Shown: piece by piece, positions 5,201-31,648 of the stretch
How the letters are laid out: every line of letters starts with the position of its first letter
Position numbering within the stretch: position 1 is the stretch's first letter
Assembly: GCF_001644705.1 (NCBI RefSeq)
Contig: NZ_CP015137.1
Coordinates: 360,001-392,000, forward strand
Direction of reading: 5' to 3'
DNA length: 32,000 nt
Origin: Dickeya solani IPO 2222
GTDB taxonomy: Bacteria > Pseudomonadota > Gammaproteobacteria > Enterobacterales > Enterobacteriaceae
The notes under the pieces: model-generated
What the model saw: the letters and a program-made list of their open reading frames with translations, nothing else
Databases searched by the model: none
Told to the model about the DNA's origin: nothing
Made by a program: the position numbers and the translations under genes

Positions 5201-8200
5201 CTACTGATACTCTGGTGGAAGTAGCCAAACAGGCGCGCACAAGAAAGCGATTCAATCGCCTGAACGCCAATATCAAACCCATCGCCGAAGTCATCGACAG
5301 AGACAGAGATCGGGTAGTTGGTGCGCTCTTCAAATCCGTGCCATACCACGCCATCAAATTCGATATCACCTAACACATCACTGTCGGTCGGGCGATTGCG
5401 GCGGTAGTTGAACACGGCGCTGAACATCGGCGTCGGCGCCACAATCCCACTACATTGTTGAGCCAGCGACAAGCTGGCATGTTCATGTTTTATCAGCGCG
5501 GTGAGGCGCTGATGCGTCTGGCGAACCGCATCGGCGGCATAACCCTCGCCGACATCAAGACGCAACGGCAGCGTATTGATGCAAGGCCCCATGATTTTAT
5601 CGCTGTTCTCACCGTGCATACGTCCGGACAGGACGGTACCGAACACCACCGTATCGCTGCCGCAGGCAGCGCTCAGGACCCGCGCCCAGCTCAAGTGGCA
5701 CAGACTACTCACGCTTACGCCAAGGCGGCGAGCCTGAGCGCGCAGCCGTTGAGCCAGCGGCGCTTCAAGCGGGCGCCGTGTTTCACTGATCCGCTGGCCT
5801 TTAAGGTGGCCGTTCTTGAGATTAAACGGCACCGACGGTTCGGTGATGTCCGCCAGCATGTCGGTAAAAAACGCCGATTGCTGTTGGGTATCGTGACGTT
5901 GCTGCAACCGCGCCACGTGATGACGAAACGGCAATGCCGCCGGCAAACGCGCGCCTTCGCCATTGAGGAATGCCTGAATGTCGGAGAGCAAAATCTGTAG
6001 TGAGGCAATGTCATCCACCAAATGATGGATATACATCAAGGCTTCCCAGCGGGCCTGTTCTTCATCATAGGCCACCACCATGTGTAGCAACGGCGGCTGC
6101 GTGAGGTCGATGCGGTTGACCTGAGGATCAACGCGCGCCTTCATCTGTTCAACGACCGGGCCATCCTGAGCATCAAAGGTGAGCTCTGCAACGTGCAAGC
6201 GCGCGTGGCGTAGCACGACCTGCACAGGCGTTTCTACCCCTTGCCAGATAAACGCGGTGCGCAAGATATCATGGCGCTCAACAACGTGTTGGATAGCCTC
6301 AAGATAGCGATCCAGGGTCTGCCGGTGCGTAAATGACAGATGACCACACTGAAGGTAAGGGTCGCCGGCTTCATCGAACAGATGGTGGAACAGAATGCCT
6401 TCCTGCAGCGGCGCCAGCGCATAGATATCCTGAATATTGGCGATGCCTCCAGGTATGCGGGTAACGATCTGGTCTATCTGCTGTTGAGAAAGCGACACTA
6501 ACGGGAAAAGCGCGGGATGAAGCGCGGTGGTCGCCGGCGTGACCACATTCTCCGGGATGACGAACGCCGGGGAGGCATCGTCCTCAAGCCTGATTTGCGC
6601 AGCAAGATCGGCCAAAACTGGATGAGCGAAGAGAGTGGGCACATCGGTATACAGTTTCTGCTCACGGAGCGCTGCCTGCAGTTGCATCGCCAGCAGTGAA
6701 TGCCCACCCAGTTCGAAGAAATTGTCCTGCCGCCCGACCTGATCAACGCCGAGCATTGTCCGCCACAGCTGCGCCAGAATAGATTCCGTACCGGCGTTCG
6801 GCGCTTCAAAGTCGCGCTGCACGTAAGCGCTATCGTCCGGTAGCGGCAAGGCCTTACGATCGATCTTGCCATTCGCCGTCAGCGGCAGCGATTCCATCAC
6901 CACAAACGCCGCCGGGATCATATAGTGGGGCAGTTGCGTGGCGAGCACCTCGCGCCATTGCGCAATCGCACCATTACCGCACGCCGCCTCTGGCACTACA
7001 TAAGCCACCAGACGGGCCTCGCCGCTATCCGGCGTAATGCCGATAACGGTAGCGTCTTTGATGTGCTCAAGCGCCGCAATACGCGACTCGATTTCACCAA
7101 GCTCAATGCGATACCCGCTCAGTTTGATTTGGTGATCGCGACGGCCAAGAAATTCAATACGACCATCGTCAAACCAGCGCCCGATATCACCGGTACGGTA
7201 GACTCTGGCTCCGGCAACCCAGGGATCGGCAATAAACTGCTGGGCCGTCAGTTCAGGGCGATTCATGTACCCCACCGCGACGCCCTCGCCGCCGATCCAG
7301 ATTTCACCCGCCATGCCCGGCGCGCAAAGCTGACCCAGATTATCGACCACGTACATACGGGTGTTGGCGATGGGCCGCCCAATACTCAGGCGAGTATCCT
7401 GGCTGTGCTCAAAACCACGCATCCATGCCGACGACATAATGGTGGTTTCCGTCGGGCCGTAACCATTGATGTAACGGCAGCGCTCGCTCCAGCGTTCAAT
7501 CAGCCCAGGCGTCGGCGCTGACCCCGCCGTCAGAATGGTCATGCCTTCAGGCACGCGTGCGGGATCTAAGTGCGTGAGATACGGCGGTGGGAAGGCCGAG
7601 AAACGAATGTCGTGTTCAACCATATACTCCGTCAACGCGGGCGGATTCTGAATCAACGCATTCGACAGCAGATGCAGTTCACAACCGCGCGTCAAGGTAC
7701 CGAAAATCTCGCCCGCTGAGGCATCAAAGGTATAAGGCGCGAACTGGGTGATCGGTTGCCCGGCGCTAAAAATCCCGATGTGTTCGCACCAGGCACAGAA
7801 ATTGATCAGGCTGCGATGCGCTATCTCTACGCCTTTCGGCGTGCCCGTGGTCCCAGAGGTATAGATGATATAAGCAATAGCGTGCGAATCGATGGCCTCA
7901 GAATGGCTATCCTCAGGCTGCTCAGCATCCGTTTGCGCCTGCTCCAGATAATCCTCAACCAACAGCAAGGTGCTGCTTTCGTCCTCGCTAAAACTCGACC
8001 GATCGGCCCGGCTGGTCAGCGTCCAGCGCACTCGCGCATCGTTAATAATGAACGCGCGACGCTCGCCCGGCGCATCCAGGCCGACAGGCACATAAGCAGC
8101 GCCCAGCTTGATGATACCCAGCATGGCCGCGATCAGGTTCGGCGTTTTATCCATACTCAGGACAATACGATCGCCCTGGGTCACGCCGACGCGGCGCAGC

Positions 8201-9126
8201 CCTGCCGCAATCCGTTCGGCGCGTTCGGCAAGCTGCCGATAGCTTAAACGCACATCGCCTGCCACCAGCGCGGTGGCCTCGTTTCTCGCCGCCACTTGCT
8301 CGGCAAACAGAGAATAGAGAGAGCGATCCAACGCCGCATCGAGTTCGGTCGCATTCCACTCATGCATAACGCGTTCGATTTCTGCGTTACTGAGCAGCGA
8401 CTGTTCACCCAGTGTGTGCTCACTGCGCTGTGCAAAGCTGGACAACAGCTGCTGCAGGCGATTGAGAATGTTATGCGCATCTGCCTCGGTCATCTCGCCT
8501 TGGCGGTAATGCAGCGCTAATGACAACGTGACCCCGGTCTGGACAATAAGATGCAGCGGTACGTGCAACCTGTGGCGTTCATTTTCCGAGCCATGCGCAT
8601 CATGCACACTGATCAGCGAGTCGAAAAGCGGTTGATTCGATGGAAAGCCCACACCGTGCGAAAGGACATCAGGCATCAGATCGACATGGCGCTGATGCTG
8701 CTCAAACACTGAGGCAATATCGTTAAACCAGTCGCGCAACGCGAGACCGGCATCAAGATGCATGCGTAACGGCAAGGCGCAGTCTTCACCCCCGTCACGG
8801 GCAGGGAACCGCTTGCCAAACAGGACTTCATCCTCACCGCTGTACTTGCTCAGCAACAGGCTCCATGCCGCCGTCATCAGCACGTCCCATGTGGTGGACT
8901 CACGCTGCACCAGCGCCAGCAGTTCGGTACTCAACGCCTGCTCAACGTGGGAAACGAGCACACGGACTTCCTGCGCAGAGGAGGAGGCGCTCTTGGTATC
9001 CTCGCTCTCAGTGGCATTAACAAGGCTGGCGTTTGCCGTTCTTTGCGCCCCGGTAAGGTATCGCTGCCAATAAGCCGCGGCAGTATCCTTACGCGACAAG
9101 AGCATATTCTCCTGCATGGTAGCCAT
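2224..9126 (-). CDS. Bimodular NRPS: truncated C - A - T - C - A(luciferase-like monooxygenase insert) - T
   Basis: The ORF is 6,903 nt (2,300 aa). ATG 9126 lies 3 nt after the stop of the AT gene, with GAGGGAG upstream. Domain motifs are listed in the sub-features. It ends ...ADLAARTIELAETRL with no TE or R domain. Confidence 0.97.
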   Translation of the reverse strand: MATMQENMLLSRKDTAAAYWQRYLTGAQRTANASLVNATESEDTKSASSSAQEVRVLVSHVEQALSTELLALVQRESTTWDVLMTAAWSLLLSKYSGEDEVLFGKRFPARDGGEDCALPLRMHLDAGLALRDWFNDIASVFEQHQRHVDLMPDVLSHGVGFPSNQPLFDSLISVHDAHGSENERHRLHVPLHLIVQTGVTLSLALHYRQGEMTEADAHNILNRLQQLLSSFAQRSEHTLGEQSLLSNAEIERVMHEWNATELDAALDRSLYSLFAEQVAARNEATALVAGDVRLSYRQLAERAERIAAGLRRVGVTQGDRIVLSMDKTPNLIAAMLGIIKLGAAYVPVGLDAPGERRAFIINDARVRWTLTSRADRSSFSEDESSTLLLVEDYLEQAQTDAEQPEDSHSEAIDSHAIAYIIYTSGTTGTPKGVEIAHRSLINFCAWCEHIGIFSAGQPITQFAPYTFDASAGEIFGTLTRGCELHLLSNALIQNPPALTEYMVEHDIRFSAFPPPYLTHLDPARVPEGMTILTAGSAPTPGLIERWSERCRYINGYGPTETTIMSSAWMRGFEHSQDTRLSIGRPIANTRMYVVDNLGQLCAPGMAGEIWIGGEGVAVGYMNRPELTAQQFIADPWVAGARVYRTGDIGRWFDDGRIEFLGRRDHQIKLSGYRIELGEIESRIAALEHIKDATVIGITPDSGEARLVAYVVPEAACGNGAIAQWREVLATQLPHYMIPAAFVVMESLPLTANGKIDRKALPLPDDSAYVQRDFEAPNAGTESILAQLWRTMLGVDQVGRQDNFFELGGHSLLAMQLQAALREQKLYTDVPTLFAHPVLADLAAQIRLEDDASPAFVIPENVVTPATTALHPALFPLVSLSQQQIDQIVTRIPGGIANIQDIYALAPLQEGILFHHLFDEAGDPYLQCGHLSFTHRQTLDRYLEAIQHVVERHDILRTAFIWQGVETPVQVVLRHARLHVAELTFDAQDGPVVEQMKARVDPQVNRIDLTQPPLLHMVVAYDEEQARWEALMYIHHLVDDIASLQILLSDIQAFLNGEGARLPAALPFRHHVARLQQRHDTQQQSAFFTDMLADITEPSVPFNLKNGHLKGQRISETRRPLEAPLAQRLRAQARRLGVSVSSLCHLSWARVLSAACGSDTVVFGTVLSGRMHGENSDKIMGPCINTLPLRLDVGEGYAADAVRQTHQRLTALIKHEHASLSLAQQCSGIVAPTPMFSAVFNYRRNRPTDSDVLGDIEFDGVVWHGFEERTNYPISVSVDDFGDGFDIGVQAIESLSCARLFGYFHQSISSLVAALEADRVPAAAPMPLYELNILPPEERRHLLKTWNDTAVPFPATATIHQLFERQVEQRPQALALQMGNVRLSYAELNQRANRLAHHLIAQGVRPDTRVAVCTERTETMLVALLATLKAGGAYVPLDPEYPATRLAYILEDATPKVLVLDQRGRDVFGAAAGSDITVVDLARDGARWEALPGGNPDVATLNASHLAYVIYTSGSTGKPKGVMVEHRQVVNFLTGMQALFNLGVEDCLLSVTSISFDIAGLELYLPLMTGASIVLASRSQAMDPHALLNLLHTLNITIMQATPTTWRLLVDTDATPHKQLKILCGGEALPSDLAVRLHAFGESLWNLYGPTETTVWSTCNRVNAEDVTQYNQSIGRPIANTQVYLLDRYGKPVPMGAIGELYIGGDGVARGYHQRPELTAERFIPDPFSTDPAARLYRTGDFAQFMADGRLIFLGRTDHQLKLRGHRIELGEIEARLLSHPWVREAVVVAREDISGETRLVAYVVPGVTEEYVEEALADSDSLDFSLFFFGASSDAVQAYNHYAEVAEFGDKHGFTAVWTPERHFHHVGGLFANPALLSASLLARTRHIQLRPGSVVLPLHDTLCVAEDWSILDNLSNGRVGIGVASGWNKQDFVLAPQNYDERRELMHKGIEELKTLWQGGSVSRRDSHGDEISVRIYPAPVQKQLPIWVTAAGASETFEYAGRSGANLLTHMLTQNIEKLAKNIEIYRTARENAGFDPRTGTVTVMIHTYLGENLNEVLAQAKGPFLDYLEGHLSLLSGWLKEQNIHLDTLPSADKRSMLEFAFKRYTRELSFIGTPESALPVAEKLQEAGVNEVACLIDWIVPENALPALEHAAALKGLVQTLFSRKALRKHLQDALPDYMVPAAFVTLKSLPLTPNGKIDRNALVPPDEMSFARRAYVPPQGSMEITMASIWEELLGVERIGRQDHFFELGGYSLLAVRLIEQLRRRGLSIEIRTLFDTPILADLAARTIELAETRL
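2251..2451 (-). other. Thiolation (PCP) domain T2
   Basis: HFFELGGYSLLAVRLIEQL; the Ser2257 codon is at 2356-2358, checked against the DNA. Confidence 0.9.
2506..5055 (-). other. Adenylation domain A2, predicted glycine-specific, interrupted between A8 and A9/A10 by a monooxygenase domain
   Basis: Motifs are LSYAELN, LKAGGAYVPLDP, AYVIYTSGSTGKPKG, FDIAGLE, NLYGPTETT, GELYIGGDGVARGY, YRTGD and GRTDHQLKLRGHRIELGEIE. About 340 foreign aa follow, then LPDYMVPAAFV and PLTPNGKIDR. The hand-derived Stachelhaus residues (GrsA numbering) are D235 I236 L239 Q278 L299 G301 L322 V330 W331 K517 = DILQLGLVWK. That is one conservative change from the canonical Gly code DILQLGLIWK. Confidence 0.85.
2647..3663 (-). 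other. Luciferase-like (FMN-dependent) monooxygenase (MOx) domain embedded in A2
   Basis: aa ~1822-2160 read LDFSLFFFGASSDAVQAYNHYAEVAEFGDKHGFTAVWTPERHFHHVGGLFANPALLSASLLARTRHIQLRPGSVVLPLHD...GRVGIGVASGW...IPIWVTAAG. This is the typical N-terminal signature of the natural-product LLM domain family found inside NRPS A domains. Confidence 0.85.
5152..6495 (-). other. Condensation domain C2 (full length)
   Basis: Motifs are IQDIYALAPLQEGILFHH, RHDILRTAFIW, MYIHHLVDDIAS (H1034-H1035-x3-D1039), IMGPCINTLPLRLD and FEERTNYPISVSVDD. Confidence 0.92.
6592..6795 (-). other. Thiolation (PCP) domain T1
   Basis: NFFELGGHSLLAMQLQAAL; the Ser810 codon is at 6697-6699, checked against the DNA. Confidence 0.92.
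6847..8319 (-). other. Adenylation domain A1, substrate not assignable
   Basis: Motifs are LSYRQLAERA, IKLGAAYVPV, AYIIYTSGTTGTPKG, FDASAGEIF, NGYGPTETT, GEIWIGGEGVAVGY, YRTGD, GRRDHQIKLSGYRIELGEIE and PLTANGKIDR. The hand-derived specificity residues are D A G A L A G I M K, a code I do not recognise. Confidence 0.88.
8362..9084 (-). other. Truncated condensation-like domain (C-terminal lobe only; no HHxxxDG)
   Basis: aa ~15-255 begin at the YW..L motif (AAYWQRYLTG) that normally follows the catalytic N-lobe. They continue with VLMTAAWSLLLSKYSGEDEVLFG, CALPLRMHL and QPLFDSLISV, then run straight into A1. The ORF starts only 14 aa earlier, so there is no room for an N-lobe. Confidence 0.7.
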
Positions 9127-9129
9127 TGG

Positions 9130-11016
9130 TTATGCTCCCTCTGTGACAACTTGCCTGGAATGGTTTTTTAAAACATTCAGTAAGTTGGATACGCTTTCGG
9201 CGTTCCTGCCGAATTGATTGATGATCGCGCCGTGCTGAAAACGCGCGGCAAATCCGTATTTGATGAAGATTGACAGGGTGCCGGTTGGGCTGAGATCAAC
9301 AAAAAACGCCTCGTTTTTCTCAGCCAACGCCTGCATTAAGCCGTAGAAATCGACGGGCTCGCGCAAGACTCGCCAGAAATACTCGCTATCCCATCGCTCA
9401 ACCGCGGTACTCAACATGGCGGAGTACACCGGCATTGCGGGGGTGTTTTTCGGCAAGGTGTCGACTAAGGCTCGGAAATCGTGCTCGATAGCCGCTATCC
9501 CGGACGAGTGGAAGGGTTGCTCAACCGGCAGCAGCATCGAGATAATCTCCAGTTGCGTCAGGCGTTCTTTGAGAGCCGACAGACTCGCCACATCACCACT
9601 GACCACAAAGTTATTCTGGAAGTTAATGCTGGCTAACTCGGCGCCCTGATAAAGCGCGGCATTCGCGTGGAAGTGCGCCACCGGCGCCAGCACGCTCATC
9701 ATCCCGCCGCCGGCGGTTTTCTTGTGCAGCAGGTGCGCCTGAGACACCACCAGTTTTATGGCGTCATCAAGCGTCAATACACCGGCCACGACAGCCGCGA
9801 TGCACTCGCCCAGGCTGTATCCCAGCACGGCGTCAGGTTCGATCCCTTCTGCTTTGAGCATACCGGTCAGGCTGACGCCAACACTCAGTAACGCCACATT
9901 GGACAGCGCCACATCAGAGAACGGCAGGTGATGGCGGGCGTCGTCATACAGCGCCTCCAGAAGACCGTGGCCGGTGTGTTGACGATACAGAGCGTCACAC
10001 CTGTCCATCTGGCTGCGAAAGGTACTATTACGTCGATACAGTTCACGGCCCATGCCGTAATACTGCGCACCCTGCCCCCCAAACATAAACACCACACGAG
10101 GGTTGGAGGATGGCGTTGTCGGGGCGTCGGCCACGTTTTTTACCGTTGGCTTACCCGGCAACGCCATCGGCTGTGCTTTTATTTTGTCAAACAGGCTGGT
10201 TAGTACCTGCCCTGGCCCGATTTCGTGCTGTTTAACCTCGCCGGACGCCAGCAGCCGCGAGATACTTTCGTACCAACGAACGGGGTGGCTTATCTGGCGC
10301 GTTAACAAGTCAAGATAATCGGTTTCTGGATAATCGAGCGCTGTGTAGTTGGAAATAACCCGCGCATTGAGCGGATTGAAAGTAAAGCGTTGCGCAAATT
10401 GTGCAAACTGCGCTTCGATATCTCGCATATAGCGAGAGTGAAAAGCCGCACTCACGTTTAGCCTGACGTAGCGTGCGCCGGCATCCGTAAACAACGTCTC
10501 GCAGGCAACGATGTCATCATAAAGACCCGAAATAACGATTTGCTGGGCACTGTTGATGTTGGCGATATCAATGCCGCTCAACGGCGACGCCGCGAGGAGC
10601 TCAACGATCTGATGCAGATCGATGCCCACGATGGCGGCCATCGCGCCGCGCGGCGCTTTCGACATCAGCATACCGCGCTCTCTGACCAGCGCGACGCCGG
10701 TTGCAAAATCAAACGCCCCCGCGGCAAACAGCGCGGCAAACTCCCCCAGACTATGACCCGCGTAGCAATCCGGCGCATCCAATCCGCTTTGTCGACTGGC
10801 GAGCACCCCGAGCGCTGAGACAACAAACAACGCTGGCTGGGTGAACATCGTCTCACCCAGCACACCCTGAGGATCGCTGAGGCATAGCTCACGAATGGAG
10901 AAACCGAGGATCTCATCGGCCTCGCTGACGAGCCTGGGGAAACGCTCAAACAGCTCATTCCCCATCCCTTTCTGCTGCGATCCCTGGCCAGGAAATACCC
11001 AAACTGAAGAAGACAT
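9130..11016 (-). CDS. Free-standing tandem acyltransferase (AT-AT) for the trans-AT PKS
   Basis: The track ORF is 9130-11049 and starts at GTG. I prefer ATG 11014-11016 (MSSSVWVFPGQGSQ), which has AGGAG at 11021-11025. It has two FabD-like halves with GHSLGE and GYSLGE nucleophile elbows. Confidence 0.93.
   Translation of the reverse strand: MSSSVWVFPGQGSQQKGMGNELFERFPRLVSEADEILGFSIRELCLSDPQGVLGETMFTQPALFVVSALGVLASRQSGLDAPDCYAGHSLGEFAALFAAGAFDFATGVALVRERGMLMSKAPRGAMAAIVGIDLHQIVELLAASPLSGIDIANINSAQQIVISGLYDDIVACETLFTDAGARYVRLNVSAAFHSRYMRDIEAQFAQFAQRFTFNPLNARVISNYTALDYPETDYLDLLTRQISHPVRWYESISRLLASGEVKQHEIGPGQVLTSLFDKIKAQPMALPGKPTVKNVADAPTTPSSNPRVVFMFGGQGAQYYGMGRELYRRNSTFRSQMDRCDALYRQHTGHGLLEALYDDARHHLPFSDVALSNVALLSVGVSLTGMLKAEGIEPDAVLGYSLGECIAAVVAGVLTLDDAIKLVVSQAHLLHKKTAGGGMMSVLAPVAHFHANAALYQGAELASINFQNNFVVSGDVASLSALKERLTQLEIISMLLPVEQPFHSSGIAAIEHDFRALVDTLPKNTPAMPVYSAMLSTAVERWDSEYFWRVLREPVDFYGLMQALAEKNEAFFVDLSPTGTLSIFIKYGFAARFQHGAIINQFGRNAESVSNLLNVLKNHSRQVVTEGA
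9250..10101 (-). other. AT2: divergent acyltransferase/acylhydrolase-like domain lacking the carboxylate-binding Arg
   Basis: VVFMFGGQGAQYYGMG, GYSLGE (Ser412 in track-ORF numbering), QPFHS. The residue 25 positions after the Ser, which is Arg117 in E. coli FabD, is Gln437 (KLVVSQAHLL). Confidence 0.75.
10150..11007 (-). other. AT1: malonyl-CoA:ACP transacylase-type domain
   Basis: VWVFPGQGSQQKGMG, GHSLGE (Ser100), Arg125 at the FabD Arg117 position (LVRERG), and an AAFHS (xAFH) malonyl-type motif. Confidence 0.85.
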
Positions 11017-11087
11017 AACTCTCCTATTACTGTTCCCGAGGACTGTCACTTAACGTTGCTTGTTTATCCCAACAGCGACTCGCTAGT

Positions 11088-11357
11088 TCAGGACTTGATC
11101 TCTTCAGCCGGTAGATGGGCTTCAATGGTGCCGACCAGATCCCCGAGCGTGTAAATACCGCGCTTGTCACCGTCGTTTACCTTGATGTGGAGCCGCTTCT
11201 CAATCTCGTACCAGGACTCAAGCATCTCGATCGAATCCACACCCAGCTCACCGCCGATAAATGAATCCAGGTCCACGACATCAGGGGTAAACCCGGTATT
11301 TTTGATGCCGTTAATAATGTCGAGAACAACGGAGAGAATGTCTTTCTGAGCGTCCAT
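11088..11357 (-). CDS. Discrete acyl carrier protein (89 aa)
   Basis: The phosphopantetheine site is GELGVDSIEMLE; the Ser42 codon at 11232-11234 was checked in the DNA. AAGGA lies 8 nt upstream of the ATG, and the gene starts 24 nt after the AOS stop. Confidence 0.9.
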   Translation of the reverse strand: MDAQKDILSVVLDIINGIKNTGFTPDVVDLDSFIGGELGVDSIEMLESWYEIEKRLHIKVNDGDKRGIYTLGDLVGTIEAHLPAEEIKS

Positions 11358-11381: not shown

Positions 11382-12626
11382 TTAGAGCGCGTCAAACTCG
11401 CGCGCAACCTCAGTGATAATGTCAACAACTTGATCGATCTCTTCCCGGGTATGGGAAGACATCACGGAGAGACGCAGACGTTCTTTATCAGGAGGGACCA
11501 TCGGGTATTCCATGATGTTGGCGAACACACCACGTTCAAAAAGACGGCGGTTTATATTGCCCACCACGGAGATTTTCCCGAAGAAGACGGGAATGATCCC
11601 GGACTCTCCGCGAAGAATGTTGAAGCCTTTCGATTCCAACTGGTCCTGCATGTAGCGCACGTTGTCATGCAGGCGCTCAATGCGTTCCGGCTCGCGTTCC
11701 ATCACGTCCAACGCCGCGGAAATAGCCGCAATCGTCGGCTGCGCTAAACCCGAGGTAAACAGATAAGGATAAGAGAAGTTTCGCAGCATAAAGATGTGTT
11801 CACGGCTGCCGGAGATGAAAGCGCCCTGAGCGCCCAGTGATTTGCTGCAGGTGGACATACGCAAATCAACCTGGCCCAGCAGGTCTAAATGCTCAAGCGT
11901 TCCCTTGCCGGTTCGCCCCAAGGTGCCCAAACCGTGAGCATCATCGAGAATGGTGATGATGTCGTGCGCCCGGCAGATATCGATGTAACGCTTGAGATCG
12001 ATGGTCGAGCCGTCCGTAGAACGCACGCCTTCCACAGTGGAAAATATTTGCGTATGAGGTTTCGAACGCGCCCGAATTTTAGGCAACATCGCCTCAAACT
12101 CATCCAGGCGCTCGGGATCGAAGGTAAAGAACGGCACGTTGGTCATTTTGACCGCGTTGATCACGCTGGCATGGCTGTTCTGGTCATAGATGATGATATC
12201 GTTACGATTCATCAGTCCATTCACCCAGCACAGGTTTGCCATATAACCGCTCGGCAGCAGCACCGCGTCTTCGTGGCCTGCTAACGCCGCCAGACGCGTC
12301 TCAAGATCCCGATGTTGCCTGGTGTAACCGGAAAATGCCGGCGACCCGCCGGTGCCAATACCGTATTTTTCTACCGCTTCGACCACTTTGCTTTTCACGT
12401 AAGGATGGTTAGCCAGACCGAGATAGCTGTTTGAACCAAACACCAATACATTTCTGAAGTCGTCGCTATGCAGGTCTTTGTACTGCATGCGCGCATCAAC
12501 CGGCCCCACGCCCTGGCGTCCGAACATGAAGCCTTTTTCCAGCTCTTTCAAATAGGTGTCATAGCGTAATTTCACGCGTTCCTTGAAAGGCTTACGTTCA
12601 AGTTCGATCAGATCATGAAAATCCAT
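11382..12626 (-). CDS. PLP-dependent alpha-oxoamine synthase (BioF / KBL / serine palmitoyltransferase family), 414 aa
   Basis: Family motifs are FGSNSYLGL (aa 63-71), NSHAS (His152), ILDDAHGLG (Asp228, His231) and MSTCSKSLGAQGAF with the Schiff-base Lys262 (codon 11841-11843 checked). AGGAGG lies 8 nt upstream of the ATG. Confidence 0.92.
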   Translation of the reverse strand: MDFHDLIELERKPFKERVKLRYDTYLKELEKGFMFGRQGVGPVDARMQYKDLHSDDFRNVLVFGSNSYLGLANHPYVKSKVVEAVEKYGIGTGGSPAFSGYTRQHRDLETRLAALAGHEDAVLLPSGYMANLCWVNGLMNRNDIIIYDQNSHASVINAVKMTNVPFFTFDPERLDEFEAMLPKIRARSKPHTQIFSTVEGVRSTDGSTIDLKRYIDICRAHDIITILDDAHGLGTLGRTGKGTLEHLDLLGQVDLRMSTCSKSLGAQGAFISGSREHIFMLRNFSYPYLFTSGLAQPTIAAISAALDVMEREPERIERLHDNVRYMQDQLESKGFNILRGESGIIPVFFGKISVVGNINRRLFERGVFANIMEYPMVPPDKERLRLSVMSSHTREEIDQVVDIITEVAREFDAL

Positions 12627-12677: not shown

Positions 12678-13667
12678 CTAAGGCGCAATAAAACCGTTGG
12701 CCCGATACCAGGAAACGCACTCCTCCACCATCTGGCTTAAGGAGGAAGGCTTATAGCCCAGCTCACGCTCTGCCTTGGCGCTGCTAAAGTAATAAACCCC
12801 ACCGAAGACACGCAGACGATAGGCATCCAGCACCGGTTCGCCGCGCACCAGCCAGGGCAACTTTTCCTGAAGCAGGGTTTTCAGATAGAAAGACGAATAA
12901 TGGGTCTTAGGCAGATCAACCTTGCACGGCACGACCGATTCAATGGTGTTGATAAGCTCGGTATAGCGAGCATTCGCCCCCGCAATCAGGTAGCGCTCGC
13001 CTGAGTTTCCTTTGGTTAAGGCGCTGACGTGCGCGTCACCGACATCACCCGCGCCGCAAAAACTGGCACCGCCCGGGGGCAGGAACGGCAACTGGTTATA
13101 GTTCACCGCCAGCACCATGCGCCCCCACTGCATTGAATAGTCGTAGGCACCCAGCACTTCCGTCGGGTTCAGAATGACGGCGGACAAGCCGCGATCGCAG
13201 GCGCGGTACACCAGCTCCTCAGCGAGCAATTTACTTTTGGCATAAGGGTTTTTCGCGCGAAAACCCGCCAGCGCGGTCTCTTCGGTCGCTTCGGCGGCGG
13301 GGTCGTTATGCGCCCCGATCGTCGAGCTGGTACTGGTATACACCAGACGCGACACCCCGCATGCCAGCGCCGCCTCAATCACCGAGCGCGTCCCTTCAAC
13401 ATTGACCGCTGCCAGCAGCGGCCAGTCACGGGCGTTGCTGCTGGTATTGCCTGCGGTATGAATCACCCCGTCGTGCCCGGCCATCGCCGCTCGCAGGCGC
13501 TGGTTATCATGCAATTCGCCGCGCACCAGCGTGACGCCGAACGATTCCAGAAAGCTCACGTTGGATGACGCTCGCACATACGCCGTGACCTGATGTTTGG
13601 CGGCGACCAAGGCTTTTATAACGTTGAGCCCAACAAATCCGTTTGCTCCGGTGATCAGTATTTTCAT
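12678..13667 (-). CDS. NAD(P)-dependent extended short-chain dehydrogenase/reductase (epimerase/dehydratase fold), 329 aa; candidate ketoreductase
   Basis: MKILITGANGFVG (TGxxGxxG), a Ser-rich TSTSS strand, and PYAKSK (Tyr142-x3-Lys146). Its ATG 13665-13667 overlaps the PKS TGA 13664-13666 (ATGA). Confidence 0.9.
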   Translation of the reverse strand: MKILITGANGFVGLNVIKALVAAKHQVTAYVRASSNVSFLESFGVTLVRGELHDNQRLRAAMAGHDGVIHTAGNTSSNARDWPLLAAVNVEGTRSVIEAALACGVSRLVYTSTSSTIGAHNDPAAEATEETALAGFRAKNPYAKSKLLAEELVYRACDRGLSAVILNPTEVLGAYDYSMQWGRMVLAVNYNQLPFLPPGGASFCGAGDVGDAHVSALTKGNSGERYLIAGANARYTELINTIESVVPCKVDLPKTHYSSFYLKTLLQEKLPWLVRGEPVLDAYRLRVFGGVYYFSSAKAERELGYKPSSLSQMVEECVSWYRANGFIAP

Positions 13668-16600
13668 GGTGTTTGGTCTTGCTGATTAAGTTTTTCAAGC
13701 GTTTTCAGGAAGGCCTTGCGCCCTTCCCCTTTGCTGCGCATAGGAAGCGCCGCCGGATTTTTATCCGGATGGTTGGCGATCCCTTCAAGCAGAATCACGA
13801 ACTGCTCAAGCAGTTGATCTAGCTGCGCTATCTGGGTGTCCATCCCCCGGCAGTCAAGACGTAAAAGCACACTGTGCGCCTCAACGCTGACCACCAGCGC
13901 CACATGCAGCCCAGGTTGAACGGCAAAGAGCGCGGAGATGGCCTCGCTCAAACCGGCCTCGTCGCCGTCAGTCAGCAGAGCAACCGCGCTATCAAACAGC
14001 GGCGCATCGCCAACCCAGCGCTCAATCCGCTCAAGCGTGGCCCCGGTATGGTCGAAACATTTTTCAAGCTGTGTTTCAACGCCTTTGAGCCAAAGCGCGG
14101 TCTTGTGGCGCCCAACCACCTGAATACGCGCGGGTATCATCTGAAGATGTTCATCATTAACATGCCGGATCAGGCCGAACTGGGAATACTTGCCCCGCGC
14201 ATGGCGATTGGTGAGAAGCGCCCAGCCAGCGGCCATCAGCGTCTCAACGGAGATCGCCTGACGTTGGGTACAGATTTGCAGGGCCGCCACCGTGTCCCGA
14301 TCGATTCGCCGCTCCACGGACAGCGTTTGCGGTGCGGAGGCTTCGGCATCCTGAACCTCTGCGCCGCCAAGCAGCACCGAAGCCATCAACGCGCCGACCT
14401 CGTCTTGGGCATGCGGTTCTTGGGCATGCAGTTGCTCAACCCAGAACGCCTGCAATTGCTCATCGTCTAGCGCGTCCACGTTGCGTTCATTCCGCGGGCC
14501 GGCAAACCATGCCTGCGGTACGGTAGGGGTAGGCGCGGCATCAGGAGCAGGTAGCGCAGCTAATTCGTTGTGGCGTGTTTGCCGCTGCGGTGCGTCAAGG
14601 CGCAGCGCGGCGTAAAGATCGCAGGGTTCTTTCGCAAAGGGGTAGCCGGGGAAAGCCACGCGACGACGTACTGCCTCGTGGTGTAACAGGCTCCAGTCAA
14701 TGTCGCAGCCACGACTCCACAGAGTGGCGACTTTGGCGAGCTGCTGCGTTTGCACCAATACATGAATAAAGTGCTTACCCGCCTCGCCGGCGATCAGCTG
14801 CGGGACATCTTTGGTTTCACGCACGTTGCCGCGATAAATATCCAGCTTGCTATGCTCAGAGGCAGGGTGAGCAATAAAGCACTCCAGTTTCGTCAGCAGA
14901 TCATCAATACTCGTCGCCACGATAGCCAACCGATGATCAAGCGTGACACGCCCAATCTGGCTGGTGTAGGCCAGGTCAGCGAGATGAAGCGCACTCCCCT
15001 GTTGCTTAATAAAGTCACGCATCTCGACGGCATACGCCGCCAAACGCTCCGCCCGATGCGCCGACAACACCACTATCTGCGGGCTGTTCTCCGCGTTATC
15101 CCTGGCGACAAGTGTTTGGTCACTATTTCGCATGAGCACGTCCTCGGGGGACTCAACCACCACAAATGCGGTAGAACCGCCCATGCCATAGGCGTTAATC
15201 CCTGCCAAACGCGTGCCTCTGGCATTGGTGCGCCATTCCTGCGCCTCGCGCGGGAACAGGAACGCAGACGTTTCATGCTCGAACGACGTGTTGACACGAT
15301 CAAGGTTGACACAAGGCGACAGACGGCCGTGCTGCATGCTCAGCAGCACCTTAATCAATGAACAGATGCCCGATGCCGCTTCCATGTGCCCAAGGTTGGC
15401 CTTGGTTCCCAACGCGCAAAAATGTTGCGCGTGAGTCTGGCGACGCAGCGCGTTGGACAGCGCCTTCAGTTCAATCGGATCGCCCAACTCGGTCGCCGCA
15501 CCGTGGCTTTCGATATACGTCAGCTCGTTAACGTCGATACGCGCCTCGTCCAGCGCCCGAACGGCGGTCTCCTCCATCACGGCCAGATTCGGCAAATATT
15601 GCCCCGCCCCCGTGCCCGCATGGCCGATGCTTGAACCGCGCAGCACGCCATAGATATGGTCGCCATCCGCCAGTGCGGTGCTCAGGCGTTTCAGTACCAC
15701 CATGCCGCTGCCTTCGCTTGGAATCAGGCCATTGGCGCGCTCATCGAAGGTGTGCTCCTTGCCGTCCGAAGAGAGCACGTTCATCTCCTGGAGCAGCATA
15801 TATTTGCTTGGGTGAAGGCTAAGATTAATGCCGCCGGCGAGCGCCATATCACACTCACCACCGAGAATGGCCTTACGTGCGATGTGCACGCTCGTCAGCG
15901 ATGACGCACAGGTGGTGGCAACGCAGAAACTGGGGCCGCGCAGATTCATCAGGAACGAAATGCGATTCGCCAGCTCACTGACGACAGAACCCGCCCCCGG
16001 ATATCGACCCGTGCGGGCATAAAGCTCGGCCATGACCCAGGTGAAATCTTCATTCATCGCGCCGACATACACGCCCACTTGCTGAGACGTGAGCGCTGAC
16101 GGGGTGTAACCGGCGTTCTCCAGGGCATGCCAGGCGGAGCGCAACAAAACACGCACCTGAGGATCGAGACGACTGGCTTCATCACTGCTCATACGGAACA
16201 TCTCTGGATCAAAGACATTCACGTTGTTGAGGAAACCACCGCGATTCACGTAACGCGGATTGCCGTTATCGTCCGGCGAAATAGCCCAACGCGCATTCGG
16301 GATCGTAGTCAGGCTCTCTTTGCCCGCCTGAATATCCGCCCAGAAATCCGCCAGATTCTCGGCGCCGGGGAACTCGCCCGCCACACCGATAATCGCCACG
16401 GCGTCACTGGCGGCATTCACACTGGTTGATAACGATGAGCGGGCAGCATGCGAACCCAAGGTATTCGTGGGCGCGTTAGGCATCGCCCGTTTAACATAAG
16501 GCGCGGCAGCGGCAGCGCCGGCGTGATGGCTATTCACCGTCGCTGCGGTACGACGCGGCGGCGTCTCTGCCGACACCTGCTGGCTCTCCTGCGTTGCGCC

Positions 16601-19600
16601 ATAACGCTCGCACAGATATCCGGCCAGTTTAGCCGTGGTATTAAACTCAAACGGCGCCGTTTTCGGCAGTCCGTCATACTCTTTCTCAAGCACGGCGCGT
16701 AACTCCATCAGCATGATGGAATCCATACCTAACTGCTCAAAGGTGGCATCCGCAGCGATATCGCCGGCAGGAAGCTTGGTGATGGTCGAAATACGCTCCC
16801 TCAGCGCGTTCTCGCTCTGCATGTAGGCGCTGTCGCTGGGCCGCGTCGGCTCAACGGCATGTTGCTTACTGGCCGCGACATTCACGCGCGCCGGCGGTGC
16901 AGAGCGCGCCACCTCATCGGCCTGAATACGCAGGGCACGGGCAATCTTGTTGCGGTCCCCAACCACAATCAGCAATTCAGGGCGTTGTTCGAGTAGCGCG
17001 CGTTCGAGGGCGATAAGGCCGGCCTCCTGGTCCAATGCCGCCATGCCGGAGAACGCAAACAGGGTGGCATCCTCTTGTTCGATGTTCATCTGACCACTGG
17101 CCCACAGCGGCCAGTTGATAGAGATAGTCTGACCGGCACGCCGCCCTTTTTTAACCAGGTTGCTGCGCCATACCGCATGGCTATCCATAAAGCGATTACC
17201 TGCGGCGTAAGCACCTGAACCCAAATCGCCGAGCACGGCTGAAACGGAAGAGAAGTTGACGAAAACGGAGAGCGGCTCCTGCGCCGTAGCGCGGTCAAGG
17301 GCCACCAGACCGTCTATCTTCGGTCCAATCAGCGCGTAAAATTCAGCATCTTGCAGTGCGGTCATCGGTGTTGCGCTAGCGACGCCCGCGCAATGCAACA
17401 CGCCATCCAATGCGCCGAATTCGGCTTTGGCTTGCGCAATCAACGCGTCAGCCTGCCCCTCTAGCGCTACATCCGCGGCGATATAGCGCACCTCGGCGCC
17501 TTGCTCGCGCATAGCAACCAGTTGCTGCTGCACGGCATCACCGGGCTGGGCCGAACGGCCGCTCAACACAATACGGGCCTGATAGCGGGATGCCAGATAG
17601 TTGGCCACCAGCAGCCCCAGCTTGCCGGCGCCGCCGGTAATCAAATAATGACCGTGACGGACGAAATTCAGGCGCTCATCACTCGTCGAGCCGTCTGTTT
17701 TGGGGGGCACAATTTCGCCAAGCTGACGCTGGTAGCGTTTTCCACTCCGGTAGGCCAACTCTAATCCGGCAATCGGGGCAGGACGCGGTACGAACTCCAG
17801 ATGAATATGGGAGGCAAGCGCCGCAGCGCTATCCGCATCGCTACGCAATGTGAACAGCTCGAAGCGATGGTTAATCGTCGACAACGAGCGTGCATATCCA
17901 CTTGCCGCATCGTGTTGCGGCTCGACCTGATCAGGCGGTGCGGTATAGACGTTAACGCAGCGTAGCGCTTGCCCCGGTGTTACCGTTTCCAGCGCCACAA
18001 ACAGGTTACGTAACGACTGCAATCCGGCATGCAATAACGGCGCGACACCAACGGCTGGGAAGTCATCAAAGTGCTTATCCGCGCCGATTGCATGCACGAT
18101 GTGGGTAGGCCACATCTGCTGTGCGGCCAACTGCTCACACAATGTCTGTACGCTGGCTTGAGATTGCATATCGGCGCTGAATCGGCAGGCATCGTGCTGG
18201 GCAAACGCGTTTGCCTGCGTAACGGCAATCACGCGTGCTGAATCACCGTAAAGCGCGCGTAACGCCTCAGCCAACGCGTCGTCATCGCTGAGCACCAACA
18301 CCTGTATCGCCGCGGAACTCACCGCTGTAACCGAGGTGGTTTCCGGCAGTGGCGATGCCTGCCACTCATAGGCATAGTACTGCACGTCTTGTGACGTCAT
18401 TGGCTGTGCCGTACTGGTATCACTCTCCAGCGTACGTGCGGCGAAGTCTTTCAGGCGCGCCAGCACCCGACCAGTAGTATCCACCAGCGTAATATCGTGC
18501 TTTTGAATCGGGCCGCCCAGACTCTGGCCCGACACACTCGATTGCGCTGGCGTCACATAGGCATAGCACTCTGTGCCGAGCGGATGGCGAAACTCCAGCT
18601 CACCGAGGAAGAACGGCACAATCGGCGTTGAATAGTCAGACGGCTCCAACCCTACCGCCAGACAGGTACGCAGCGCGCCGTCTAACAGCGATGGATGCAG
18701 ATAAAACGCATCAGCGGAACGTACCGCATCGGGCAGGCACAAATGACTTAGCGCAGAGTCAGCAAAGCGGTAACGCTCACGCGTCACCTGATAGCTCGGG
18801 CCATAGGCAAAACCCATTTTGGCAAAATCAGCATAGATAGCCGCCTGATCGCTTTCGTGTTTGCCGCGGTTACGCAGCGCGTCAAGATCGATCCATTCAT
18901 CGGCAATCTCGGTAGTTTTCGGGCGATAAACCAATTCCGCTTCTAGCGAGAGCACATCGGTATGGCGGTTACAGATCGCCACCTGCACGCTTTCGCCATC
19001 CGAGTGCGCCAGGTCGATTTCAACCTCCACCGGCTCGTCGTCCACCTCGATGGCGTTCATCCACATCAGGTTGCGAATAGCCCCCACGGCCCACTCGTTT
19101 CCAATCGCCAGTTGGCCCGCAGCGTGCATCATTTCGATATAGGCCGAGCCGGGTAAGATCACCCGCGCATCAGCGCTGCCAACCACATGGTCACGCAGAT
19201 AGGGCTCCTGCCCGGTCAGCTGTTTGATAAATTTCTGCTGCGACAGCGTGGAGGTGTTCTCGTCAATCAACGGGTGCAGCGATTTAACGCGGTGTGATTC
19301 GCCTGGTTCCGAAGGCAGAGCCAGCCAATGGCTGCGCATCATCAGCGGCAAAGAAGGGAATGAAACCCGACGCACCGCATGGTCTGCAAAGAGTAACGGC
19401 GCGACCTGTTGCCAGTTCACATCCAGCATCGTGGTCCACAAGCGGCCCAAACGCAGAAGCTGGCGTTCTTGTACCAAGCCGGTCACCAGCTCATCAAGCT
19501 GCCTGCCTTCAAGGATGGTATCCAGACGTTCGCTGCTGCCGGCGACACGCCCACGAAACAGCTGTTTCGCCGCGCCGTCCTGCCGGTATTGCTCAAGCTG

Positions 19601-22600
19601 GCTCAGTAAATCGCCCAAGCTGCTCGCCACCACCGCGAGGCGTTCTGCCATGGCGTCGCGCCCGACCAGTGAAGAAAATGCCAGAGAGTCAAAACCGGGC
19701 GCCGTCTGCGGTTCATGCACCGCCTGACTGAGGAAGTTCACCATCCGCGCTACATACAGCGATAAACGTTCTTCGCTATCCGCCGAGAGCACGAACAGAC
19801 GCGGTTCACCACGATGTGCGGCGGCCGATGCAAGTTTTGACGCGTCGTCTTGCGGCGCGTCTTCTATCAGCACATGGGCGTTTGAACCACCCGCACCGAA
19901 GGCGCTCAGGCCGGCACGACGGGGATGATCGGCAGCCGACTCCCACGCCTCAAGCGCCTGCACCACACGGAACGGCGAGGCAGTGAAGTTAATTTTCCCG
20001 TTCAGCGTCTGTGAGTGCAGTGACGGCACGATCTTACGATGACGCATCTGTAGCAGGATTTTGGTCAACCCGGCGATACCGGCGGCGGACTCAAGATGCC
20101 CGATATTGCTTTTCACTGAACCTATTCGGCAGTGACCCGGCTGTCGTTCGTCGTTGAGCCCCCGTTGTGCATTGATACGCGAAAAGGCTTTGGCAAGCCC
20201 GGAGATCTCAATCGGATCCCCCAGCATCGTGCCGGTGCCATGCGCTTCAATGTAATCCAGTGACGCGGGGCTCCAGCCAGCACGCTCAAGTGCCGTGCTG
20301 ATAACGTTGCTTTGTGCCGCCTGATTCGGCACCGTAAAACCGCTGGTTTTGCCGCCGTGGTTGATGGCTGTGGCCTTGATCACGCCATAAATTTGGTCGC
20401 CATCCGCTATCGCCTGCTGCAACGGTTTAAGCAGCACCGCGCCCACGCCTTCCCCTGGGACATACCCATCGCCGCCTTCGCCGAAGGCCCGGCAACGCCC
20501 ATCGCTTGAAAGGAATTGGTTTTGCCCCAGTTGGTAATATTTCATCGGGTGCACGATCAGGTTGACGCCACCGGCTATCGCCATTTTACAGTCGCCGCTT
20601 TGGATCGCCTGACAAGCCAGATGTAGCGCGGTGAGTGACGACGAGCACATGGTGTCCAGCGCTACGCTGGGGCCATTCAGATTGAAATAGAATGAAACCC
20701 GGTTGGCTACCGATGAGTGCAACGACATGGCCCAGCCGGATTCGTGCTGTTTTTCCGTCGTTTCAATGCATTGATACTGCCCCCACATCACCCCGACATA
20801 CACACCGACCTGCGATTTGCTCAGTGCGTGACGCGAGTAGCCGGCATCCGAAACACACTCCCACGCGGTTTGCAGAAACAACCGTTCCTGTGGATCCAAC
20901 AGCTCCGCTTCACGAGGCGATATGTTGAAATATTGGCTGTCGAACTGATCAATATCATCGATAAATCCGCCCCATTTGCTGTAGACCTTGTTCTTAGGCC
21001 CCCGCACTGGGGAATAATGTTGGTGATAGCCCCAACGTGACAGCGGTATTTCGGCGATGCTGTCTACGCCGCCAGTGAGGTTGGCCCAGAATTCATCCAC
21101 GTTTTTGGCGCCCGGATAGCGGCCGCTCAGCCCGATAACCGCAATGTCATCTTTTACGCCAACCACGCCAACCGGTTCAGTGTCGCGCGACGCATTACGT
21201 CTCAGGGCATCAATACGCGACGTGTTCAGCAGATTGGCCAGCGTCGGGCGCGAAGCCGGCATCGGCGACGCGGCGTTGTGTTGAAGCGCGGGCTGCTGCG
21301 CGGCCTGTATCGCCTCGGCCCATTCGGCCAGCATCTGATAACGGTAGACGGCGGTGGCACTAACGCCGGTAAAACGCGCATCCAGCTCATGCTGTAGGCG
21401 AATAAGATTGATGGTATCCAACGGCCACTGCCAGAGCGGTGTCAGTGCAGAGTGGTTTGTCGCTGCCGAACCGACCGCCGCCGTCAAACTGTCAAATACC
21501 CCATCGCCTGTCGCCGATACCGGGTTTGCCGAACGGTCCGGTTCAGCAGCGGGCTCCGCAGCATGACTGACGTTTTGCTGCAACAGCGCTACCGGCGCTG
21601 ACGTGACGCTCGCCGTCGCGGGCTGCAAGGTGGCAACCTGATCGGGATAGCTCTCACAGAGAAAATCTGCCAGGGAGTCGATGTCCTGATATTCGTAGAA
21701 CAGTGTTTGCGACACCTCACCAAAGCGGGCTGCAAGCTTCCCGTTCAAGGCCAAAATCATCATCGAATCAAGGCCATAATCCGACAATTGTGTAGCAGGT
21801 CGCACCTCGCCGGCATCTAACCTGGTGACCTCAACAATGCTGGCTATCAGATAATCCCGCACGCCGTCACGTACTGAGCGGGCGCTCACAGGCTGCGCCT
21901 CACTCAGTTGCGCCACATTCGGTTGCACCCCACTCAGTTGCGCCCTACCCGGCGCTGGCTCTGCGGACGTTACGTCAGCAGGCGGCACCACCTGTTCGGG
22001 ATAGTTTTCAATCAGATAATCAGCCAGTGAAGCGAGGTCTTCGTATTCATAGAAGAGTGTTTGAGGAAGGCCATCAAAGGTTGCCGAAAGCTTCTCGTTC
22101 AAGCCCAGAATCATCATCGAATCAAGACCATAATTCGATAACAGCCCCGAGGCGGTCACGTCGCCGGCATCCAGTTTGGTCACGCTAATGACATGAGCAA
22201 TCAGCGTATTAACGACAGCCTCGCGCGAAGGGGGCGCGCCAGACTGCTGACGCGGCGTAGCGGCAATAACCGACGCCGCCGCAACTGGCGCGCTGCCTGC
22301 GCTCATTGGCGCGGCGGGCTTCGCATTCTGCGCTGCTCGTAATGATCTCATGCCCAGATGCGGCACCGCTTGTGTCTGCAACTGGGTGAGTCTTATCACC
22401 ACATTGCCGATGCTATCGAGCAAATCAATATTGTAGCTTGCCGTCGTCGCCGTCGAGCCGTGTGCGTTATCCCGGCGGGCGTAGGCATAGCAAACCCCGT
22501 CAATCGGCTTAAATATCTGCAACCTTGTCAGGGCAACCGGAACATCAAGCGTATTGGTCGTTGCGCTAAAGCCACCGATACCCAGCGCGGTACGTAATGC

Positions 22601-30315: not shown

Positions 30316-30541
30316 TATATCCTAAATAATTCGAGTTGCAGGACAACATGTCCGCGCTTTGAATAACGCAACGCGTTAGCCCTTCAGGACAAGGCTCGTC
30401 ATGGGCCTTACGTAGCGAATCCCCACAGGGCCACCAGAAGTCGATTTGAACGCAGTTTGTTGTGGTCCCGGAGGGGGGAGACCTATGGATGGGTCGAGGA
30501 ATAAAGCCAACACACCCACAACCTGGGGTATGACGAGTATA
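30316..30541. repeat. ERIC/IRU-like enterobacterial intergenic repeat, enlarged by internal insertions
   Basis: The ends and core match the ERIC consensus as I recall it. The left end is TATATCCTAAATAATTCGAGTTGCAGGA (consensus TATACTCTAAATAATTCGAGTTGCAGGAAGG). The core is GAATCCCCACAGGGCC (GAATCCCCAGGAGCTT). The right end is AAAGCCAACACACCCACAACCTGGGGTATGACGAGTATA (CAGCCAACGCAGCACATGCAACTTGAAGTATGACGGGTATA). About 100 nt of extra sequence lies between the matching blocks. Confidence 0.6.
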
Positions 30542-31520: not shown

Positions 31521-31580
31521 GTTTTTCATGGACTAAACAGTCCGGGATGCAGGTGGAGCACTGTGGGATTTGCTGGAACG

Positions 31581-31607: not shown

Positions 31608-31648
31608 CAACGATCCACAGACTCCGATGGAACTCTGCAGATCAAATT

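Follow-up and report, generated by a model that had tools for sequence, protein, structure and literature searches.

The window analysed here is a 32,000-nucleotide stretch of Dickeya solani IPO 2222 (contig NZ_CP015137.1, positions 360,001 to 392,000 of the forward strand), and the subject of this work is the C-terminal tail of the large polyketide synthase (PKS) encoded in it. All large genes of the window lie on the minus strand, as do all features for which window coordinates are given below, and they are arranged in the order PKS, short-chain dehydrogenase/reductase (SDR), pyridoxal phosphate (PLP) enzyme, acyl carrier protein (ACP), tandem acyltransferase (AT), and non-ribosomal peptide synthetase (NRPS). 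The products are 5358, 329, 414, 89, and 2300 amino acids (aa) long (the tandem AT, SolE, is not in this list of sizes). In Table 1 of PMC9765074, the proteins of the solanimycin (sol) cluster of D. solani MK10 are SolA (5,358 aa), SolB (329 aa), a PLP enzyme (415 aa), SolD (89 aa), and SolF (2,300 aa). Since the sizes and the order in the window match SolA to SolF of strain MK10, the tail under study is the SolA C-terminus, and the window, judged by its gene content, is the sol cluster of D. solani or of a near-identical strain. We report here that the last ~260 residues of SolA are homologous to the C-terminal lobe of an NRPS condensation (C) domain together with the first helix of the linker that joins such a domain to an adenylation (A) domain (C-A linker), as confirmed by profile comparison and structure prediction.

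SolA (solA, 29740..13664, assigned from its open reading frame (ORF)) is a trans-AT PKS with the domain order KS-DH-KR-ACP-KS-DH-ACP-ACP-KS-DH-KR-ACP-KS, in which KS, DH, and KR denote ketosynthase, dehydratase, and ketoreductase, respectively. The last ketosynthase, KS4 (residues ~4446-4813, 15302..16405, Pfam ketoacyl-synt and Ketoacyl-synt_C), is without a carrier protein of its own. It keeps the cysteine motif (TTCASS) and the two histidine motifs (ESHGAAT and NLGHME) and, given the catalytic Cys and both His in its sequence, looks condensation-competent and not like a KS0. The motif ESHGAAT (15491-15511) stands where relatives read ESHGTGT. KS4 is followed by a flanking (linker) subdomain of the trans-AT type (14636..15247, Pfam KAsynt_C_assoc, RhiE-like_linker, and CurL-like_PKS_C), which ends in VAFPGYPF (residues 5028-5035). 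Downstream of it lie a linker of low complexity (14453..14635), the C-terminal lobe (residues 5097-5324, 13769..14452), and a conserved terminal peptide (residues 5325-5358, 13667..13768) with which SolA ends.

Homology of the SolA tail to the C-terminal lobe of condensation domains

The lobe, which was delimited by Pfam, family profiles, an AlphaFold2 (AF2) model, and Foldseek, extends from a YWxxxL-type motif (QAFWVEQL, residues 5097-5104, 14429-14452) through LMAAGWALL (14213-14239) and APLFDS (13988-14005) to the helix LLEQFVILLEG (13781-13813), and it contains no catalytic motif. The YW, AAGWALL, PLFDS-like, and terminal hydrophobic motifs that an earlier note on this DNA had named are all present. 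When the tail was compared with Pfam as a single sequence, only profile positions 192-439 of 456 of the Condensation family (PF00668) were aligned and the match was weak (E = 0.0073), its 15.5 bits falling short of the gathering score of 30.6 bits. No match was obtained in a phmmer search of the tail against PDB sequences, none was found in an NCBIfam search with the single tail sequence, and a scan of genome contigs using tail peptide patterns found no relative; a word-indexed search of 5.8 billion proteins with the tail gave one match. A two-sequence profile was then made of the window tail and one close relative (P0001) and run with HMMER against 1.84 billion representative proteins, giving 1402 matches at E ≤ 1e-3 and 156 at E ≤ 1e-10. 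Nearly all of them are NRPS C domains matched over the second half only, typically at residues ~230-450 of an N-terminal C domain, and an HHxxxD motif is found no more than 230 residues upstream of the matched lobe in 120 of 133 ordinary NRPS matches, i.e., these are complete C domains. A profile of 15 tail-family sequences matches the solved C domains of McyB (residues 203-456, E = 2e-30) and SrfA-C (residues 192-441, E = 9e-15), as well as TycB (residues 193-457), PvdL, and BacC, and in the solved structures the match covers the C-terminal lobe and the start of the C-A linker.

The AF2 model of the tail, computed on the 15-sequence family alignment, has a predicted local distance difference test score (pLDDT) of 81 and a predicted template modelling score (pTM) of 0.82. 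The top 50 Foldseek matches of this model in the PDB are all C, cyclization (Cy), or X domains (E = 1e-12 to 2e-9). Their template modelling (TM) scores are ~0.65 when normalised to the query and ~0.42-0.45 on isolated C domains of ~430 residues, the latter values indicating about half a domain. A previous AlphaFold model from two sequences was poor (pLDDT 45.8) yet matched only C-type domains, and it is superseded by the 15-sequence model. The tail is thus placed in the PF00668 superfamily both by a sequence match, obtained with the family profiles, and by the chloramphenicol acetyltransferase (CAT)-like fold of its C-lobe in the AF2 model. Pfam, the HMMER profiles, and AF2/Foldseek agree that the tail aligns with the second half of C domains, as the earlier note had proposed, whether the alignment coordinates or the overlay of the predicted structure on complete C domains are considered. 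We also considered the tail as a copy of a neighbouring C domain; this candidate was rejected, the internal C domain of SolF being only marginally similar (hhalign E = 0.008).

The first half of the domain is missing from SolA. The distance from the end of the KS4 flank to the YW motif is 61 residues, so an N-lobe of ~180 residues cannot fit, and no HHxxxD(G) occurs in SolA residues 4300-5358; both results bear out the reading of the earlier note that neither an N-lobe nor HHxxxDG lies between KS4 and the tail. The family alignment and the model pLDDT (46-54 over the first 20 modelled residues) predict the 61-residue linker to be disordered. It contains a conserved W(F/Y) motif (PQAWFAG, 14498-14518) located ~22 residues upstream of the YW motif, a spacing which we take, by eye, to resemble that between C4 and YW in complete C domains. 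A recognisable C5 motif is absent from the tail, and the C5-type region consists of loops of variable length in the tail family. With neither the N-lobe nor HHxxxDG, the two-lobed active-site tunnel cannot form, and the sequence supports the view that the tail is devoid of the residues known to be needed for amide-bond formation and would be unable to catalyse this reaction alone, as had been claimed before. The tail therefore differs from a catalytically competent C domain, which has an N-lobe with HHxxxDG, and also from the C_Asub type of half-domain, in which the C-lobe leads directly into the C-A linker and an A domain, since SolA stops 34 residues past the lobe. A lone N-lobe is not encoded in the window either: HHxxxD occurs there only in the internal C domain of SolF and in the C domain of SolG. 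Both of these C domains are complete, and an N-lobe supplied in trans was rejected for the window for this reason.

The last 34 residues, HPDKNPAALPMRSKGEGRKAFLKTLEKLNQQDQTP, were recognised as a conserved terminal peptide from the family consensus (PxKNPAALxMRTKxExRExFWKTLE), the profile, the model, and the substitution rates given below, and the proteins of the family end within 0-10 residues of it. The peptide is collinear, by eye, with the first C-A linker helix of NRPSs (LLTxxERxQLLxEWN), the alignment of the family profile with McyB continues through PDknpaaLsmrtkkesRe as far as residue 456, and a helix is predicted at positions 268-286 of the AF2 model. From this collinearity with the start of the C-A linker it follows that SolA stops where an A domain would begin. 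The earlier note had ended the feature at 13766, thereby omitting these best-conserved residues; the feature runs to the stop codon. The conserved W(F/Y) motif, for its part, lies upstream of the start given in that note.

Among the best 150 representatives found, 17 carry the match at the extreme C-terminus, after a trans-AT KS and its flank. Thirteen family members were examined (the window, ten representatives, and two independently reached genomes), and in none of them does HHxxxD occur in the last 520 residues. The motif that ends the KS flank was found in 10 members, 307-353 residues from the C-terminus, and the YW motif in 11, 234-283 residues from the C-terminus; in the 9 members of the 13 in which both were found, the gap between them is roughly 65-90 residues. 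The relatives, from Gamma- and Betaproteobacteria, are only 24-35% identical to the window tail, and the architecture is kept. The blocks that persist are YWxxxL, LQxFTQxxxIxxETLxxAAWAxLxNRxTKAxxSQFG, PxRxxTVGRxKIxxWL, IxxWxGxxxLFDS, and LLEQFxVLLEG. W, F, L, Q, R, and E predominate at the conserved positions, which are mostly hydrophobic or aromatic, and no His, Ser, or Cys is conserved. A SolA-type tail can be described by a KS flank, a linker, a C-lobe started by YW, a terminal peptide, and accompanying SDR, α-oxoamine synthase (AOS), ACP, and AT genes, all of which are found in the window.

Two relatives show a variant gene structure. In locus L001 (GCA_977068475.1), an in-frame TAG (~9971-9973) lies inside the KS4 flank of the SolA orthologue and the tail is called as a separate protein of 397 aa, which is P0001; the frame is open and conserved downstream. 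The TAG could be a sequencing error, a recent inactivation, or the sign of a naturally detached tail. In Gynuella sunshinyii (CP007142, L010), the last ACP-KS-tail unit is a separate protein of 1028 aa (5875-8961).

Ratios of non-synonymous to synonymous substitution (dN/dS) were calculated by the Nei-Gojobori method from a codon alignment of SolA with its orthologue in locus L003 (CP049603.1, 75% protein identity). They are 0.075 for KS4, 0.15 for the KS4 flank, 0.31 for the linker, 0.24 for the C-lobe, and 0.12 for the terminal peptide, values that are approximate because dS (~1.1-1.4) is near saturation and that are still far from neutrality. The tail is under purifying selection. Together with the deep conservation of its architecture, these ratios argue against a decaying scar, and they support the earlier opinion that pure decay was the less likely course.

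Genes that accompany the tail and the half-domain of SolF

The stop codon of solA and the start codon of solB overlap by 4 bp (13664-13667), as they also do in L001, L003, L010, and L011 (Teredinibacter haidensis), and this suggests translational coupling of the tail-encoding end with the reductase gene. The gene solB (12678..13667) encodes an NAD(P)-dependent SDR (Pfam Epimerase and 3Beta_HSD; NCBIfam HpnA and OleD-like), solC (11382..12626) a PLP enzyme assigned by NCBIfam to the AOS family (BioF/Kbl/SPT type), solD (11088..11357) a free-standing ACP (NCBIfam ACP models and ORF), and solE (9130..11049) a tandem AT-like protein, i.e., a trans-AT plus an acyl hydrolase (AH), with two stretches of Pfam Acyl_transf_1 (PMC10204066). 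The best NCBIfam matches of SolC are all α-oxoamine synthases (bioF 289 bits, glycine C-acetyltransferase 288, serine palmitoyltransferase 282). In the literature, SolC is an aminotransferase that transaminates a 2,3-diketo thioester (PMC10204066). SolC and the adjacent reductase SolB resemble a Kbl/Tdh-like pair, and the keto-amine of the solB mutant would be in keeping with a 2-amino-3-keto acid that decarboxylates spontaneously. However, labelled glycine is reported not to have labelled the two extra carbons (PMC10204066).

An SDR, a SolC-like PLP enzyme, an ACP, and a tandem AT follow every tail-bearing PKS with visible downstream DNA (the window, L001, L002, L003, L004/L005, L006, L007, and L008). 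The SolC-like enzyme has 411-414 residues wherever it is called intact, and an ACP of 86-89 aa occupies the same position in all loci. SolC homologues number 411 at E ≤ 1e-60, are at least 67% identical among the best 120 listed clusters, and come from Dickeya, Rouxiella, Pantoea, Erwinia, Lysobacter, Xanthomonas, Collimonas, Gynuella, and Teredinibacter. In the converse test, which started from distant SolC homologues, the upstream PKS ends in a tail in both loci inspected (G. sunshinyii and T. haidensis). The tail and SolB-SolE are associated in 10/10 loci, and Gynuella, Teredinibacter, and several metagenomes were confirmed to carry the complete cassette. In Gynuella, a 67-aa ORF and an alpha/beta-hydrolase gene lie between the AT gene and the NRPS gene (L010, 13505-15066). 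A literature search for an AOS together with a trans-AT PKS turned up nothing relevant.

The earlier note had further pointed out a second half-C domain at the start of the NRPS and had taken it as an argument against decay of the tail. In SolF (solF, 2224..9126, assigned from its ORF), such a half-domain is indeed present and collinear with the tail: residues ~12-247 (8386..9093) match Pfam Condensation with 46.8 bits over profile positions 191-453, align to McyB 199-478, and give in hhalign against the tail family a probability of 98.3%, E = 2e-14, and 228 collinear columns from the YW motif to the linker. Next come the C-A linker helix SLLSNAEIERVMHEWNAT (8347-8400) and the first A domain (AMP-binding from residue 274), so that the SolF N-terminus has the make-up of a C_Asub. 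As an argument against decay it is weakened, because distant clusters do not conserve it and because it resembles ordinary C-lobes more than tails. With 90-110 bits on ordinary NRPS C-lobes vs 17-56 bits on tails for the SolF N-terminal family, the half-C domain is not specifically related to the SolA tail. The tail-family profile scores 69 bits on the N-terminus of SolF, 54 on that of L003, and 40 on that of L001. The NRPSs of four distant sol-like clusters begin instead with a different, conserved domain of ~215-230 residues carrying the motif AAWHGVLHWLRYxDEPV (L002, 31070-31780; L004, 34836-35540; L006, 33103-33810; L011, 17093-17780). This domain had no Pfam match, 0 PDB profile matches, and no match to the tail profile at E ≤ 10, and hhalign against the SolF-type half-C was collinear and non-significant (E = 0.26 and 0.066); these comparisons lean against its being a cryptic C-lobe. 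The Gynuella NRPS has no N-terminal extension and begins directly with an adenylating, fatty-acyl-AMP-ligase-like domain. The C-terminal subdomain of a C domain holds all the residues that form the C-A interface (bioRxiv 10.1101/2021.08.23.457306), and the SolF half-C is most simply explained as the C-A interface that its first A domain has kept. What is always found with the tail is SolB, SolC, SolD, and SolE, and not the NRPS half-C.

The first module of SolF is without a complete C domain, and its internal full C domain is of the dual epimerization/condensation (E/C) type with HHLVDD. A luciferase-like monooxygenase is inserted in the second A domain (residues 1825-2133). The SolF orthologue of L001 (15871 onward) has 1952 aa and no Bac_luciferase match, a difference which suggests that the L001 cluster may make only the non-hydroxylated congener. 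A TubC_N β-hairpin docking domain (36.5 bits in Pfam against a gathering score of 26) opens SolG (~1701-2120), and a complete C domain (HHLIDD) comes after it. A classical docking domain thus serves the junction of SolF with SolG, unlike that of SolA with SolF.

Possible roles of the tail

SolA of strain MK10 (PMC9765074, PMC10204066) is the same protein, and an "Unk" domain is drawn at the position of the tail (PMC10204066). The identification as a C-lobe is therefore a refinement of a known domain and not its first sighting. The two papers do not name the tail as a C-lobe, nor do they describe the terminal peptide, the family, or the link with SolB-SolE, and the domain string published for SolA and SolF in 2022 omits both half-domains. 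New in this work are the C-lobe identification, the definition of the family, the evidence for selection, and the tight coupling to the AOS/SDR/ACP cassette.

In comparison with a canonical C domain (SrfA-C, 2VSQ; McyB, 8HLK), the tail is homologous over the C-lobe and the start of the C-A linker, has no N-lobe, HHxxxDG, recognisable C5, or downstream A domain, and sits after a ketosynthase. The C_Asub half-domains (XUC engineering units, McyB constructs, and, as an example, the SolF N-terminus) represent the same half with the same hinge boundary, but the SolA tail supports no A domain and stops once the first linker helix is complete. The X-domain of glycopeptide NRPSs (4TX2/4TX3), which is among the Foldseek matches of the tail, is a catalytically dead C-type domain that recruits trans tailoring enzymes, and by analogy the role proposed below would be most like this recruitment. 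The X-domain follows a peptidyl carrier protein (PCP) in an NRPS, recruits P450s, and has a two-lobed C fold with a degenerate active site, whereas the SolA tail has one lobe only, and its putative recruits would be SolB, SolC, and SolD, with whose genes it is associated. The CON domain of the LovB/MokA PKSs (6AD3; PMC6260248), which Foldseek listed as well, is a condensation-like remnant at a PKS C-terminus without the normal peptide-bond chemistry; unlike the tail, it is found in fungal iterative PKSs, has two full lobes, and is not accompanied by an AOS/SDR/ACP cassette. A shortened C domain is also found at the end of the palmerolide trans-AT PKS (PMC8739492), but that fragment is the opposite half, with 133 residues, most of HHxxDDG kept, and a proposed catalysis of release. 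Literature on truncated C domains in trans-AT PKSs yielded only this N-lobe piece and complete terminal C domains (lasonolide). Docking domains of the TubC-type β-hairpin and four-helix-bundle kinds join separate assembly-line proteins, as the tail may do, but they have ~50 residues or less and unrelated folds, the TubC_N domain of SolG being one in the same window.

In the published account of solanimycin biosynthesis, the passage of the polyene chain from SolA to SolF is acknowledged as a gap (PMC10204066). From the fold, the homology, the loss of the catalytic half, the purifying selection, and the constant gene neighbours we infer a binding role and a likely partner, and we give an even chance to the proposal, the likeliest in our view, that the tail, as a non-catalytic descendant of NRPS condensation domains, serves as a protein-binding platform at the PKS end. 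A non-catalytic binding role is a conventional guess for such a domain. The lobe and the terminal helix would hold one or more of the trans-acting partners SolB-SolE at KS4. The free ACP SolD would be the most plausible partner of the lobe, since the donor carrier protein contacts mainly the C-lobe in complete C domains; in a review, C-lobes are described as carrying most of the donor carrier-protein interface, and the C-lobe plus the C-A linker as forming the A-domain interface and, in FmoA3, the inter-protomer interface (PMC10510592). SolE would load SolD with its AT/AH pair, and binding would complete the split last module and the α-amino/β-hydroxy tailoring before the chain passes to SolF. 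Several points weigh against this proposal. Elsewhere the same review assigns the donor PCP to the N-lobe (PMC10510592), gene adjacency does not identify a physical partner, and the TAG in L001 could mean that the covalent link between tail and PKS is dispensable, or else that the cluster is inactive there. In addition, the constraint on the lobe is weaker than that on KS4 (~3x faster evolution), and the near saturation of dS makes the underlying ratios approximate.

Two CAT-like lobes make up a complete C domain as a pseudo-dimer, and the lobes of SolA and SolF might accordingly form a matched docking pair, binding through their N-lobe-facing surfaces to give a pseudo-C domain that joins the PKS to the NRPS. 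The two half-domains occur in one pathway with the same boundaries and are collinear, the N-termini of SolF and of its L003 and L001 counterparts are all scored by the tail-family profile, and an interaction of SolA with SolF has been suggested (PMC10204066). We nevertheless regard such a pair as unlikely, because conservation of the tail does not extend to the NRPS half-C (L002, L004, L006, and L011 differ and Gynuella has none), because the N-terminal family of SolF has more in common with ordinary C-lobes than with tails, and because a retained C-A interface explains the SolF half-C more simply. Modular PKS C-termini often bear dimerisation elements, and the two tails of a KS4 homodimer could equally pair with each other or pack on the KS flank as a structural cap without any trans partner. 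Lobes of the CAT fold pair naturally, the C-lobe and C-A linker mediate dimerisation of FmoA3 (PMC10510592), and the purifying selection on a domain without catalytic residues would fit such a cap. It would leave unexplained, however, both the strict link with the SolB-SolE cassette and the highly conserved helix at the very end of the protein, and it seems an improbable function for the tail.

It is quite doubtful that the tail is a tolerated, functionless relic of an ancestral PKS-NRPS fusion or of recombination at the hinge between N-lobe and C-lobe. The weak single-sequence Pfam match, the variable loops of the C5-type region, the faster evolution of the lobe relative to KS4, and the stop codon upstream of the tail in L001 are features that a relic might have, but dN/dS values of 0.24 and 0.12 are well below 1, the boundaries and the terminal peptide are kept across Gamma- and Betaproteobacteria at such low identity, and the L001 frame stays open downstream of the stop. 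Least probable, in our judgement, is cryptic catalysis, in which the lobe would share an active site with another protein (a trans N-lobe or SolC) or have an activity of its own. The transfer from the PKS or SolD to SolF is unexplained and the first SolF module has no complete C domain (PMC10204066), and the family to which SolC belongs condenses acyl thioesters with amino acids; on the other hand, the window holds no lone N-lobe, no His, Ser, Cys, or Asp is conserved in the tail family, and glycine feeding left the two extra carbons unlabelled (PMC10204066).

A bolder reading, which we think rather improbable, is that half-C lobes are docking sites for carrier proteins, in a hand-over for which a PLP enzyme stands in for the lost catalytic half. 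SolD held by the SolA lobe would be loaded at KS4 and would then dock to the C-lobe of SolF, SolC would join the polyenoyl chain to the α-carbon of the amino acid on SolF-T1 through a C-C bond and not an amide, and SolB would reduce the ketone. If true, half-C docking with a PLP-dependent hand-over would be a new kind of PKS-to-NRPS junction, and the half-C-derived elements a new class of docking domain. The half-C identity, the purifying selection, and the constant company of ACP, AOS, and reductase turn "Unk" into a defined target, and as the cassette is present in many unexplored clusters, an answer would apply to a whole family of hybrid pathways. Should the lobe be a portable docking element, it would be useful in the engineering of PKS/NRPS junctions.

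At the upstream edge of the cluster, the GC content falls from ~57% within the cluster to 43-47% (28001-32000), and a tRNA-Gly gene (GCC, 31649-31724) adjoins this drop. Horizontal acquisition of the sol cluster has been proposed (PMC9765074), and both the GC drop and the neighbouring tRNA-Gly gene are consistent with it.

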